Shown: positions 23,431-33,084 of the stretch, piece by piece
How positions within the stretch are numbered: position 1 is the first letter of the stretch
How the letters are laid out: the number at the start of each line of letters is the position of its first letter
NCBI GenBank assembly: GCA_965263035.1
Contig: OZ253580.1
Span: 3,712,001 to 3,776,000 of the forward strand
Source: Acidobacteriota bacterium
GTDB taxonomy: Bacteria > Acidobacteriota > UBA6911 > RPQK01 > JAJDTT01
DNA: 64,000 nt
Direction of reading: 5' to 3'
Position numbers and translations under genes: made by a program
The notes under the pieces: model-generated
What the model was told of the DNA's origin: nothing
What the model saw: only the letters and a program-made list of their open reading frames with translations
Database searches by the model: none

Positions 23431-23533
23431 GGAGGGGCGACATCCTGGTCGCCCATTCTTTCTTTTCTCGGTTCTTTCCTGCCTCAGGTTTTTTGGGAGG
23501 TCGGCTACGGGGCGGCTGGAAACCGCCGCTCCT
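23431..23533. repeat. REP-doublet (REPIN-like) element, family C, empty copy
   Basis: GGAGGGGCGAC-ATCCTG-GTCGCCC followed by GGCGGCTGGAAACCGCCGCTCCT, two short hairpins in inverted orientation between convergent genes; same architecture flanks the intron at 31271-31984. Confidence 0.7.
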
Positions 23534-29427: not shown

Positions 29428-31077
29428 TTGTTGCGAAAGAAAAGGTTTCAGGTCGATCGCCGGCGATTCCTGGTGGGGACGGCGGGCGCCATGGGACCGG
29501 CCTTCTTCGGACGCCTGCCGCTCCCGCTGCTGGCGAGTCAAGGTGCCCCGTCCCCGGTTCCAGCTTGGGATGCCGGCCGCGTGCGGCATCTCCTGCCTAC
29601 CGTCAGCGATTCCCGAGTGCTGATCAAGGCCTCCTTCGACCGGCCGTTGGCGGCCTCACCCAGACTTCGGATCGGAGCTGCCGAGATAGCGGGCCGGATG
29701 AACGACACGGCGGGCGTTTTCTGGCAGTTCTACGCCACCGGCCTGGAGCCGGATAAACGATATTCCCTGTCCCTGTCGGGCGGCGACGGACGAGCCTTGT
29801 GTGAACCGTGGACGCTTTCAACCTTTCCGGCCCCCGATGCCCGTCCCGAACGGTTCCGGCTGCTCTTTTTCACCTGTGCGGGCGGTCCGGGCGGGACCTA
29901 TTCAGGGATCGGTAAACGGAGCAGCTTCCTCCCCGCCGCCATCCGCAATCGGCTCCTCCGGCGCGCGCTGTCGTTCCGGCCGGATGCCGCCGTGGCCAAC
30001 GGTGACCACATGTATTGGGATCTCCACACCTGGTTGGGAGACAGCGTCGGCGAACTCAGTCCCGGCGGGCGGGACTCCGACTTCGATTTTTCGGCTTCTC
30101 CGTTCGGCGGCAGCAACGAAGCGGCACTGAAGGCGGCGGCCGGGCCGCAGATCGTACCGGTGTACGGCTCGGACTTCAGATCGACGCCGGTGTTCTTCCT
30201 GCAGGACGACCACGACCACTGGGAGAACGACGCCGCCAGCGACGAAATCGTCAACTTTCCCATCCCCTGGTTCCAGCTGCAGTTGGCCCGGGCGACCCAG
30301 CAGCTCTACTATCCGGAGTTTCTTCCCGACGTCCGGCGGCCGGCGGGATTGCCCTGGTCCGGCGCTGGGGACCGGGGCGGCCTGTCCGAGAGCTTCGGGA
30401 CCATCCGTTACGGGGGGCTCGCGGAGGTTCTGCTCTACGACGTGCGCCGCACGCTGAGCCTGGCGGGACCCACCGCGGTCTTCGTCGATGGACAGGTCGA
30501 GAAGTGGTTGCTGGAGCGCACCCGCTCGACCGAGGTGCGGCACTTGGTCCACGCTCCCTCGAACCCGTTCGGGTGGAGCGCGGGGAAGTGGGGCGAATGG
30601 TATCCGGACGTGCTGGATTGGGAGGCGGGCGCCCTTACGACGGCTGTTCCGAAGCCGTACTGGCAATCGGGATGGCTCAAGCAACACGATCGGCTGGTGC
30701 AGGCGATTGCCGCCCAGCCCAGCCGCGTCCCGCTGGTGGTCAGCGGAGACCTTCATGCCATCGGCGTGGGGCGGATGCATCGCGCGGGGAAGCTCGACCT
30801 GAAGGCCAACCCGTTGACCACGGTGCTGAGCGGCCCCATCGGCACCTCGATCCGGGGATTTCCGTCGGTGGTCCGCGGTATCGGCGCAACGCCGCCGGCG
30901 CACCTGGACCTGGAGGAGACGGTTCCGCCGGTCGAGCAACACGGATTCACCCTGGCGGACTTTCTGGCCGACCGGATCGTGTTGCGGCAGTACAAATGGG
31001 ACGTGAACAGTCAGCCGCTGGAGGCCATCGACAACCTGGAGCCGTTCCAAACGACGGAGCTGGGAGCCGGTAGCTGA
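29428..31077 (+). CDS. Tat-exported PhoD-like metallophosphatase
   Basis: DRRRFLVG; NGDHMYWD, QDDHDHWEND and SGDLH. Confidence 0.75.
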   Translation: MLRKKRFQVDRRRFLVGTAGAMGPAFFGRLPLPLLASQGAPSPVPAWDAGRVRHLLPTVSDSRVLIKASFDRPLAASPRLRIGAAEIAGRMNDTAGVFWQFYATGLEPDKRYSLSLSGGDGRALCEPWTLSTFPAPDARPERFRLLFFTCAGGPGGTYSGIGKRSSFLPAAIRNRLLRRALSFRPDAAVANGDHMYWDLHTWLGDSVGELSPGGRDSDFDFSASPFGGSNEAALKAAAGPQIVPVYGSDFRSTPVFFLQDDHDHWENDAASDEIVNFPIPWFQLQLARATQQLYYPEFLPDVRRPAGLPWSGAGDRGGLSESFGTIRYGGLAEVLLYDVRRTLSLAGPTAVFVDGQVEKWLLERTRSTEVRHLVHAPSNPFGWSAGKWGEWYPDVLDWEAGALTTAVPKPYWQSGWLKQHDRLVQAIAAQPSRVPLVVSGDLHAIGVGRMHRAGKLDLKANPLTTVLSGPIGTSIRGFPSVVRGIGATPPAHLDLEETVPPVEQHGFTLADFLADRIVLRQYKWDVNSQPLEAIDNLEPFQTTELGAGS

Positions 31078-31270
31078 CGCACACCGGCGAGGAAGTCGTC
31101 CCGCGAACCCGGCTTCCAGGGAAGAGAGGAAAAGCAGGAAAGAGGAAAGAGTGAAGAAAGGCGGGTAGTTTACGCGTCGCGGGGCGCCGTCGGCGGGGAA
31201 GCTTCAAAAAATCAGATCGTCCCCGGTTTCGCTTACAGACCTCTTCTCTCTTTCCTCTTCTAAGAAACAA

Positions 31271-31984
31271 GGAGGGGCGACTGTGCGCCAGGCTAACTGG
31301 CACAAGATAGGCGGTGAAAGTCCGCTGAAACGAAAGGACTAACCATCCACGTTTCTCCGCGAGCCGTGCGTGGGCGTCCGTGAGGGCGTCGGCGAAGCGT
31401 CGGTAGCGGTGCGTATGGGCAGGCTATTGAGCATCGAAAGCTCCTTGATCGGAAGTGCCGAGGCTGTAGTCGCGGTCGAAGGCAACACTGGCTGGACCGC
31501 CAAGGTGAGGGACGGCCGGGCTCCGCGGTGTCAAAGAACCCATGCACGTACGTACATCTGGTGTCGGGACCTGGGAGGGCTTGGTCTCTCCCCGGCGAGA
31601 GCCGGGGCCTCGTGGGAAAGGAGAAAGCCGTAACCCATGAGGGGAAAGAGCAAGCAATCGGATACATCCATAGTAGTGATGAAGCGGGCGAACAAGGAGG
31701 GGGAACTCTCTGCGGAGTCGGTGGAGCGAAGGGGTGGAACCAAGGGGAATTCGGCTCACCAAAGTACGGACCGGACTCAGAGCCGGGCTACCGTGACACA
31801 GGCGGGGGTCGGATACGGCGGGCGTCGCGACCTGCCGTCATTACCTGAGGTAGGAGCCGTGTGCCTTAACGGGCACGCACGGATCTGCGCGGGGGGCGCT
31901 GGGCAACCGGTGTCCCTACCGCGACTCCAGTCGCCCATTCCTCCATGCTCCACCGGAGTTCGGCGGTTGGAAACCGGCGCTCCT
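31271..31984. repeat. REP-doublet family C copy interrupted by the group II intron
   Basis: Removing 31283-31925 restores GGAGGGGCGACT|TCCAGTCGCCC...GGCGGTTGGAAACCGGCGCTCCT. Confidence 0.75.
31283..31925 (+). mobile_element. ORF-less group II intron (IIB-like, resembles bacterial class E), 643 nt
   Basis: 5' GTGCG; domain V GAGCCGTGTGCCTTAACGGGCACGCACGGATC; domain VI ending CCCTACCGCGAC; EBS1 AGTCGC (31468-31473) pairs with IBS1 GCGACT (31277-31282); EBS2 CTCCTTG (31441-31447) pairs with CAAGGAG (31268-31274); no RT ORF. Confidence 0.9.
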
Positions 31985-32052
31985 ACCCTTTTTCTACCGG
32001 GCGTCCGCCGGACCGGGCCGGTGGGGGAGCTTTTCTCCTTTCCTCTCCGACC

Positions 32053-33084
32053 CTACCAGTGGACCCGGAACTTGAGGATCTGGTGTCCCGCCTGGATGAA
32101 GACCAGCCCCTCGTCCGTCCGGCTGACGGCCACGGCGTGGTGCCGCCCTCCCGCGTGGTCGAACAACCCTTCGGCGTCGTCCGACGTGATCGTGACCAGG
32201 AGGTCTCCGTCCTTGCTCAGAATCCACAAGAATCGATGCTGAGGACCGACGGGGACCACCGGGCCGATTCCGGCGATGTCGGGCGGACAGTGGAAGCCGG
32301 CGGCGTAGATGTTCTCCCGGCTGTCGACGCAGATTTGGCGAGGTTGAAAAATCACGCCGTCGCCGACGGACCTCCGGTAGTTGCCGTGGAGGTCGAACAC
32401 CTGGATGCGGTTGTTCTCGGTGTCGGAGACGTACAGATGGCTGCTGACGGGGCCCACGGCCAAGCCGTACGGACCCTCGGGAGAGGTCGCGCCGCGGCCG
32501 ATCTCGTGGCCATAGCGGCCCCGCAGCGGTGACCTGCCGCCAAATCGGCCGGGACCCTCGCCATGCCCCCCGAACGCCGTCAGGAAACGGCCGCGGTGAT
32601 CGAATTTCTGAACCCGGTTGTTTCCGCCCAGATAGGTGTGGGTGTCGCTGACGTAGATGTGGCCGTCGGCGTCGAAGGCCAGACCGTTGGGACCCGCGCC
32701 GCCGAACTGACCGGGCCCGTTGCCGTAGCTGCCGAACATCATCCGGAAGGAACCGCTGGAATCGAATTTCTGAACCCGATTGTTCCAGGAGTCGCCGACG
32801 AAGAGGTTGTCGTCCGGATCGACCCCGATGCCCCGGAACATGAAGAATTGCCCGGGTGCGGTGCCGTGACGCGGCCGCCCGTCCGCTCCGACGGCCCCCA
32901 GCGACCACAACGGCTCCCCGTCGGGGCTGATCCTCTGGACCCGGTGGTTAGTCTCGTCGGCGACCAGGATGCGGCCGCGGCCGTCGGACGCGAGGCCCTC
33001 GGGATTGTGAAACTGTCCCGGCAGACGGCCCCCCTGCTTGGGACCGAAAGCGCTCAGAAGCTCGATTCCGGGACCCGTCACCAT
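32053..33084 (-). CDS. NHL-repeat beta-propeller protein
   Basis: Repeats of PxGxA/VD...DxxNxRVQKF (VADETNHRVQ, DSWNNRVQKF, SDTENNRIQVF). Confidence 0.85.
   Translation of the reverse strand: MVTGPGIELLSAFGPKQGGRLPGQFHNPEGLASDGRGRILVADETNHRVQRISPDGEPLWSLGAVGADGRPRHGTAPGQFFMFRGIGVDPDDNLFVGDSWNNRVQKFDSSGSFRMMFGSYGNGPGQFGGAGPNGLAFDADGHIYVSDTHTYLGGNNRVQKFDHRGRFLTAFGGHGEGPGRFGGRSPLRGRYGHEIGRGATSPEGPYGLAVGPVSSHLYVSDTENNRIQVFDLHGNYRRSVGDGVIFQPRQICVDSRENIYAAGFHCPPDIAGIGPVVPVGPQHRFLWILSKDGDLLVTITSDDAEGLFDHAGGRHHAVAVSRTDEGLVFIQAGHQILKFRVHW

Follow-up and report, generated by a model that had tools for sequence, protein, structure and literature searches.

An ORF-less group II intron lineage found in REP-like hairpins of an Acidobacteriota genus

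Several lineages of group II introns are specialised in their choice of target: IIC introns use terminators and attC sites, and a IIB1 clade is found at start and stop codons. Terminators, attC sites and start/stop codons are also the specialisations named in the introduction of PMC12584367, the part of that paper considered here, and repetitive extragenic palindromes (REPs) do not figure among them. The element described here is a 643-nt group II intron without an open reading frame (ORF) for a reverse transcriptase (RT). It lies within a REP-like hairpin in a 64-kb stretch (the window, in which all window coordinates are counted) of contig OZ253580.1, the single 6.2-Mb contig (62% GC) of an Acidobacteriota metagenome-assembled genome, G000; G002 and G004 to G008 denote congeneric relatives. 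The intron is probably an ORF-deleted, non-autonomous member of an endonuclease (En)-less, IIB-like lineage of the D1D4-6 type that specialised on REPs, was mobilised in trans and whose copies in G000 were recently stranded.

The closest described systems are the En-less IIB-like introns of classes D, E and F, such as RmInt1 of Sinorhizobium meliloti, with which the intron shares an En-less RT/maturase, target reading by the exon-binding sites EBS1, EBS2 and EBS3, a small ribozyme and an orientation consistent with use of the replication fork. RmInt1-type introns target an insertion sequence or a unique site, whereas the intron studied here targets a multicopy REP, and its EBS sets have diversified with the REP subfamilies. 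The published passages compared (from PMC3753933, PMC3552965 and PMC4424553) give no feature that decides among D, E and F, and the intron is grouped with the D/E/F type as a whole. Group IIC introns likewise home to intergenic hairpins, lack En and reach many copies per genome. According to passages of PMC12584367 and PMC4424553, they recognise a folded upstream stem-loop, with an intron-binding site (IBS1) of 3-4 nt and no EBS2. In contrast, the present intron pairs with the tag and arm of the hairpin, inserts inside it, and has EBS2, EBS3 and a 6-nt EBS1; IIC identity was rejected on the presence of EBS2, the length of EBS1 and the position within the hairpin. The Rfam types differ as well, since the IIC-type introns of G000 match D1D4-3/-1 and insert after the hairpin on the other strand.

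Cyanobacterial ORF-less introns and C.te.I1 of Clostridium tetani share the ORF-deleted form and the dependence on a sibling's protein. In the passages considered of a 2015 review (PMC4424553), bacterial ORF-less introns are rare and nearly always co-resident with a related intron-encoded protein (IEP), C.te.I1 being the sole listed exception. The lineage described here differs in being old, monophyletic, multi-species and re-targeted, and G000 holds seven copies without a related IEP. REPs are preferred landing sites for mobile DNA also in the case of REP-targeting insertion sequences (Tobes and Pareja 2006, PMC1525189), and a table in that paper includes a group II intron of Pseudomonas putida for which 2 of 9 copies are associated with REPs. 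The elements in the portions of that paper considered are mostly DNA transposons with protein-based site finding, and those portions describe neither RNA-guided reading of tag and arm nor lineage-wide specialisation. A literature search that left out subscription journals and supplements found no EBS-guided homing into REPs and no EBS sets tracking REP subfamilies, the nearest case being this 2006 entry.

Pairing of the intron with REP-like hairpins

The element begins with GTGCG at 31283 and ends with AC at 31924-31925 on the + strand; one diverged copy starts with GTGTG. It matches the Rfam model RF02005 (group-II-D1D4-6) over its whole length (model 1-225/225, window 31317-31540) with 164.5 bits against a gathering threshold of 49. 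The domain V/VI model RF00029 scores 36.9 bits (E 1.9e-5) on 31852-31925, slightly below its gathering threshold of 40, and a full-length sibling in G004 reaches 41.0 bits. The fold of this region has a z-score of -4.13, with the AGC and a 2-nt bulge in domain V and, in domain VI, a bulged A at 31918, 8 nt from the intron 3' end, which is a candidate branch point. The domain V loop is 4 nt closed by U-G in this fold and is not clearly the 5-nt loop of IIE/IIF introns (passages of PMC3753933). Across 16 copies, RNAalifold gives 93 consensus pairs in domains I-III, with compensatory change at 7. IIB-like structural features are present, namely EBS2 and an EBS3 apart from EBS1 in domain I; EBS1 and EBS2 both fall in variable loops of the RF02005 model.

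No RT ORF is present in the element: tblastn with the IEP of full-length siblings recovers only residues 1-56 (70% identity) and 491-519. These results uphold a first-pass annotation, made from the sequence of the window, that had proposed an ORF-less group II intron of 643 nt with these termini, a domain V and a domain VI, and an EBS1 and EBS2 that are perfect complements of the 5' exon. The same annotation was mistaken about domain IV, of which it saw about 60 nt (31793-31850). About 225 nt remain (~31626-31850), including a ribosome-binding site and the start of the IEP gene (ATG at 31637 and about 64 N-terminal codons), and the ORF-deletion junction lies at ~31830/31831.

The intron sits between GGGCGACT (31275-31282) and TCC-AGTCGCCC (31926-31936). 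The end of the 5' exon, GGAG-GGGCGACT, and the start of the 3' exon, TCC-AGTCGCCC, form an 8-bp hairpin with a 5' GGAG tag, with the intron exactly at the stem/loop border. Far from being single-copy, the hairpin core occurs 42 times in the genome, where base composition would predict 0.5. The hairpin forms the first half of a doublet of 154 nt (31241-31282 plus 31926-32037), in which the second hairpin is inverted and CTCC follows it. Insertion into a hairpin of a two-hairpin repeat had been anticipated, but the repeat at 23431-23533 taken as its empty counterpart is only a loose relative. The true empty sites are 12 other doublet copies in the genome (95-100% identical by blastn) in which the two halves are directly joined; the intron occupies 1 of the 13 copies. 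In its tag-hairpin ... hairpin-tag arrangement, with 13 copies of 95-100% identity, the 154-nt unit corresponds to a REPIN.

G000 contains seven full copies of the intron (91-100% identity) and one 68-nt fragment, all of which follow a tag (GGAG or GTAG), two nucleotides and six further nt in REP-like hairpins, with unrelated wider flanks. Copies c1 and c2 are identical (643/643) although the REPs around them are of different types; among c4-c6 there are 1-2 base differences. Because the REPs of c1 and c2 differ on both sides of the junction, the unit that moved is the intron alone. In a search of 40 relatives the element was found in 8/8 genomes of the same genus, and outside the genus there were only two weak domain V matches; copy number across genomes ranges from 0 to at least 12. 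Exons were compared for 45 copies with both ends from six congeneric genomes. A strict hairpin test was passed by 32 of them, compared with 194 of 20000 junctions chosen at random; a further nine form hairpins with a single mismatch, and by eye about 41/45 lie in REP-like hairpins. The proposal that a multicopy REP family is the target is thereby borne out, with all seven full copies of G000 in the same place of REP-like hairpins.

Seven EBS1/IBS1 variants occur among the 45 copies: AGTCGC/GCGACT, AATCGC/GCGATT, AGTCCC/GGGACT, AACCCC/GGGGTT, GGGTGC/GCACCC, GGTCGC/GCGACC and GGATGC/GCATCT, each matching its own 5' exon. EBS2/IBS2 takes three forms (CTCC/GGAG, CTAC/GTAG and ATGCA/TGCAT), and EBS3/IBS3 is A/T, G/C or T/A across lineages, EBS3 being a single unpaired base. 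Another candidate for EBS3, the A/G in the stretch before the EBS2 stem, was rejected since it fails to vary with IBS3 and is paired within a helix that shows compensatory change (columns 133-269). Since EBS1, EBS2 and EBS3 change together with the flanking exons, it is the ribozyme itself that reads the tag of the REP, its 5' arm and the base that opens the loop. These natural compensatory changes confirm, at the level of sequence, a three-part, IIB-style recognition in which IBS2 is the REP tag, IBS1 the 5' arm and IBS3 the first base of the loop. EBS2 would pair with the GGAG/GTAG tag 5' of the REP, EBS1 with the last six bases of the 5' arm and EBS3 with the first loop base, positions that would place the landing at the stem/loop border.

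The hairpin as a structure is probably not what the intron recognises, because IBS1 is the 5' arm itself and the stem must open. The unpaired tag could serve as first contact, after which EBS1 would displace the 3' arm, which has the same sequence as EBS1. Upon splicing, the RNA would regain an intact REP hairpin.

Passive copying at the DNA level, by REP/REPIN transposition through a RAYT-like transposase or by repeat recombination, would offer another route to multiple copies in REPs. It draws on the mobility of the 154-nt repeat itself, with its 13 near-identical copies, and on the position of copy c3 in the first REP beside a RAYT-like gene. However, the intron is present in only one of those 13 copies, identical introns are found in REPs whose sequences are unlike on either side of the junction, so that exactly the intron moved, and the covariation at three EBS/IBS sites is left unexplained. 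Passive copying is largely refuted by these observations and is very improbable.

Table 1. Coordinates of the intron, its host repeat and related features (window positions unless G000 is given)
Feature	Position	Strand	Basis or remark
ORF-less group II intron, 643 nt	31283-31925	+	Rfam, termini; 7 full genomic copies 91-100% identical
Domain I core	31317-31540	+	RF02005, 164.5 bits; RNAalifold
EBS2, CTCCTTG	31441-31447	+	Exact complement of CAAGGAG; covariation
EBS1, AGTCGC, terminal loop of a domain I hairpin	31468-31473	+	Exact complement of GCGACT; covariation
EBS3 (A)	31533	+	Pairs with T31926; column unpaired in consensus fold
IEP gene remnant, ATG and ~64 codons, within domain IV remnant	31637-31830	+	tblastn with sibling IEP
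Domain V	31854-31885	+	RF00029; fold
Domain VI, bulged A31918	31888-31923	+	Fold
Left half of 154-nt repeat (REPIN-like doublet), ending in REP1 tag and 5' arm	31241-31282	+	blastn, 12 joined copies
IBS2, CAAGGAG; last four bases (31271-31274) are the REP GGAG tag	31268-31274	+	Complement of EBS2
IBS1, GCGACT, last 6 nt of the 8-nt REP1 5' arm (31275-31282)	31277-31282	+	Complement of EBS1
IBS3 (T31926), loop TCC and REP1 3' arm AGTCGCCC	31926-31936	+	Sequence; hairpin test
REP2 of the doublet, inverted imperfect hairpin, then CTCC	31959-31983	+	Site type occupied by IIC-type introns of G000
Right half of 154-nt repeat	31926-32037	+	14 further matches from the first base, at least 112/115 nt, 95-100% identity
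Diverged REP doublet without intron	23431-23533	+	Different spacer; would-be IBS1 ends in A, not T: imperfect target
IIC-type ORF-less copies, examples	G000 37505, 88637, 312511, 4234178		
IIC-type full-length copies	G000 529400-531400, 2572795-2574686		

Loss of the ORF and mobilisation in trans

Full-length siblings of 1912-1917 nt occur in G002 (at least 10 copies), G007 (10), G004 (3) and G005 (1), and those in G002, G005 and G007 occupy REP sites. An RT-encoding sibling with the same EBS, which the first-pass annotation had foreseen, thus exists in congeners at the same kind of target. The sibling IEP has 499-519 residues with RT and maturase, and scores 350-364 bits on TIGR04416 (cut-off 300); scans with Pfam and NCBIfam found no HNH/endonuclease domain in it.

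The ORF-less copies lack 1274 nt relative to the 1917-nt siblings, with the same junction in 9/9 examined. In a tree of the first 545 nt, from which 7 interrupted or partial rows were left out, 23 ORF-less copies form one clade and 22 full-length copies another. The shared junction and the single clade indicate that the deletion happened once. Judged from these comparisons, the ORF-less form then spread to new sites and changed its EBS sets several times; it is found in G000, G005, G006 and G007. The element is accordingly non-autonomous in the manner proposed at the outset, its ORF having been deleted with the ribozyme kept and spread following the deletion. One 1274-nt deletion would have founded the ORF-less lineage, which would have spread and been re-targeted among REP subfamilies in several species, much as a short interspersed element (SINE) depends on a long one (LINE). 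Reverse transcription would require the RT/maturase of a full-length sibling acting in trans, and the ORF-less form appears to have kept the start of domain IV, the usual binding place of such proteins.

The orientation of the copies agrees with use of the replication fork. GC skew places the origin of G000 at ~2.85 Mb and the terminus at ~5.8 Mb, with dnaA at 2.872 Mb, and the sense strand of the intron has leading-strand polarity at 8/8 places, that is, the lagging-strand template receives the insertion. The strand of the copies in G002, G005 and G007 changes at exactly one point around dnaA and once more on the far side. Pooled over the four genomes, 44 of 46 places are clear and two lie near termini (P ~5e-5 at a 72% baseline of targets), with the terminus positions of G002, G005 and G007 assumed and the copies in related genomes not fully independent. 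Empty targets are themselves biased (89/118 strict sites; 76/105 hairpins of three GCGAC-type stem families). The bias in G000 alone (7/7 or 8/8) was rejected as evidence on account of this target bias, only the four genomes pooled being significant. En-less group II introns take primers at the replication fork (passages of PMC4424553), and the orientation pattern fits such introns using the lagging-strand template. Insertion would thus be into the lagging-strand template strand, with a borrowed replication primer.

RNA evidence comes from assembled contigs of RNA libraries, in which depth cannot show expression. In one contig of RNA run X17, positions 31282 and 31926 are joined exactly, with a left-side match of only 28 nt. 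This joint, which is the spliced junction named in the first-pass annotation, was rejected as evidence of splicing because the 12 empty copies of the 154-nt repeat hold the same junction. A further X17 contig, with a loose end at window 31848, joins the end of a full-length intron's protein gene to domain V. The community sampled there therefore includes the full-length form, whose carrier the contig does not identify.

Several observations weigh against a REP-specialised intron that was mobilised in trans and then stranded. No splicing, lariat or new insertion was observed, the sole exon-exon joint in an RNA library being explained by the empty paralogues. Domain V scores below the Rfam threshold, and the G of its AGC stands opposite an A in place of the usual U. 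Four of the 45 copies are not in hairpins (three in G004 at one repeated site, and L102 in G007), and folding of the hairpin hides IBS1 within the REP stem. The orientation in G000 alone is not significant against the target bias (P 0.07-0.13), and the assumed termini and related genomes qualify the pooled value. Only seven sites are occupied in G000 against 118 perfect empty targets. Finally, the single 6.2-Mb contig of G000 contains no cognate RT, the best tblastn matches being 31-37% identical, so the protein that had been expected elsewhere is not encoded on this contig. Loci related to the sibling IEP were found only within the same genus; by tblastn, the sibling IEP is 53-59% identical to unnamed ltrA genes on many proteobacterial plasmids.

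The missing donor also bears on whether the copies are still mobile in this organism, served by an unseen RT from a missing plasmid or other replicon, from a co-resident relative or from unrelated intron RTs of G000. Recent movement is suggested by the identity of c1 and c2 and the 1-2 base differences among c4-c6. It is likewise suggested by orthologous loci. Five relatives were fetched, of which four span the site (the G005 locus matched the upstream flank only); in G007, G006, G002 and G004 only 35-50 nt separate the flanking genes and the doublet and the intron are both absent, so both arrived recently. Continued mobility would also accord with the full-length 3'-end contig in an RNA library that also holds the studied locus, although that contig is not assignable to this organism. 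G000 has five intact intron RT genes of other classes, but those matching the sibling IEP best (the 31-37% matches) belong to D1D4-4-type and IIC-type introns. Intron RTs are normally specific for their own RNA, which weighs against service by such unrelated proteins. The low occupancy of targets is a further point against continued mobility, which is unlikely on balance. Instead, the ratio of seven occupied to 118 empty targets fits loss of the protein donor, and the seven copies of G000 may be stranded without one, because sibling RT genes occur in congeneric genomes only.

Retention of the copies for a host function, as structured RNAs at 3' ends or through regulated disruption of REPs, would mean that the element is no longer selfish. 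The ribozyme helices have been kept after loss of the ORF, with compensatory change at 7/93 pairs, and the lineage persists in at least four species. Conservation of structure is, however, just as expected where an element depends on splicing and reverse splicing. No conservation of positions is seen from one species to another, the number of copies differs among genomes as described above, and there are fragments as well as copies broken by an insertion sequence (IS) and by a MITE-like insert (MITE, a miniature transposable element with inverted repeats). A host function is thus most improbable, and an ORF-deleted intron mobilised in trans by its siblings' protein is the preferred explanation.

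REP-like repeats and their other residents

In G000, 15 recurrent stem families account for 465 perfect hairpins tagged with GGAG or GTAG. GGAG predominates over GTAG as the tag, which stands 0-3 nt ahead of the stem. Outside long open frames lie 166/465 of the recurrent tagged hairpins versus 54/430 other tagged hairpins, the latter without an excess over the 11.5% of the genome that such frames leave uncovered (a crude proxy at 62% GC). Like REP/RAYT systems (PMC3733652) and REPINs (PMC3116915), these repeats are short palindromes rich in GC that bear a tetranucleotide tag at the 5' end, number in the hundreds, form inverted doublets and flank RAYT-like genes. They differ from the GTAG-tagged REPs of PMC3733652 in that the tag is mostly GGAG, and the RAYT-like proteins score 73.6 bits (G000) and 69-79 bits (relatives) against a cut-off of 80.

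G000 encodes two Y1 transposase-like genes (PF01797, 36-39 bits, above the cut-off of 23). The first, whose best NCBIfam match is REP_Tyr_transpos, is followed by a REP array, the first hairpin of which holds intron copy c3. The second has an internal stop and tagged hairpins on both sides, and was scored on PF01797, not on NCBIfam. RAYT-like genes were also found in 5/5 relatives tested. The suspected RAYT/TnpA-REP gene is therefore represented by RAYT-like genes flanked by such REPs, with scores just below the NCBIfam cut-off.

The REPs are used by a second, IIC-type intron family in G000 (Rfam D1D4-3/-1, 515-aa RT), with 2 full-length and about 19 ORF-less copies of ~650 nt. By eye, 18/19 of the ORF-less copies stand directly after a REP hairpin and GCTC. 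They lie on the strand opposite the GGAG tag, the same REPs being used from the other side, and 16/19 are in leading-strand polarity. At G000:C1 3066875-3070028, one REP cluster contains an IIC-type copy, itself interrupted by an insertion of 1.8 kb, and copy c5 of the IIB-like family 55 nt upstream of it.

Other RT-bearing loci include a D1D4-4-type intron with an intact 471-residue RT frame whose end lies ~200 nt upstream of where a 23S rRNA gene starts (G000:C1 5841511-5843436, L013), and a D1D4-4-type RT gene in two pieces separated by an insertion of ~2.2 kb (G000:C1 5053399-5056938). A 1253-residue open frame at G000:C1 1808601-1812359 (-), in which a weak RT domain (30.7 bits) is combined with a long C-terminal extension, does not encode an intron protein and may represent a defence-type RT.

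Damaged members of the IIB-like family were also encountered. The fragment at G000:C1 4424636-4424702 consists of intron nt 1-68 preceded by a proper REP 5' arm, and similar fragments of 54-68 nt occur in G006 and G008. Two orthologous ORF-less copies, L095 (G007) and L126 (G006), carry a 112-nt insert (117 nt replacing 5) at intron positions 93-98, within a domain I hairpin loop; the insert is MITE-like, with long terminal inverted repeats. A full-length sibling, L123 (G002:C1:1402400-1406820), is broken near intron nt 55-62 by a ~2-kb insertion with a 605-residue open frame, a transposase by look only, which is 86% identical to G000 1035143-1037022.

At the studied locus the neighbouring genes are convergent. 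An upstream gene on the + strand, the orientation of the intron, ends at 31077 (codon-position GC 0.67/0.52/0.81), and the end of an NHL-repeat gene on the - strand is at 32053. Apart from the doublet, ~145 nt of purine-rich and partly duplicated sequence at window 31095-31240 is additional in G000 compared with four relatives.

A broader picture, possible though offered tentatively, is that REPs in this genus are the habitat of a nested community made up of RAYT-like transposases, REP/REPIN repeats and two unrelated group II intron lineages, each with a long-lived, SINE-like ORF-less sublineage. The IIB-like lineage would re-tune EBS1, EBS2 and EBS3 to REP subfamilies and the IIC-type lineage would use the opposite strand. 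The IIB-like sublineage would survive without a donor, self-splicing and restoring the REP hairpin in RNA, as a nearly cost-free parasite of a parasite.

As read from these genomes, one genomic parasite uses another as a landing pad. The family provides natural retargeting data, with at least seven EBS1 sets matched to REP subfamilies and empty-site controls built in, and shows a route to many safe sites for a retroelement that lacks an endonuclease. It could yield compact ribozymes with targeting rules readable from genomes. ORF-less introns are here abundant, old and multi-species, and are present also in a genome without a cognate protein, which bears on the origin of splicing-only introns.

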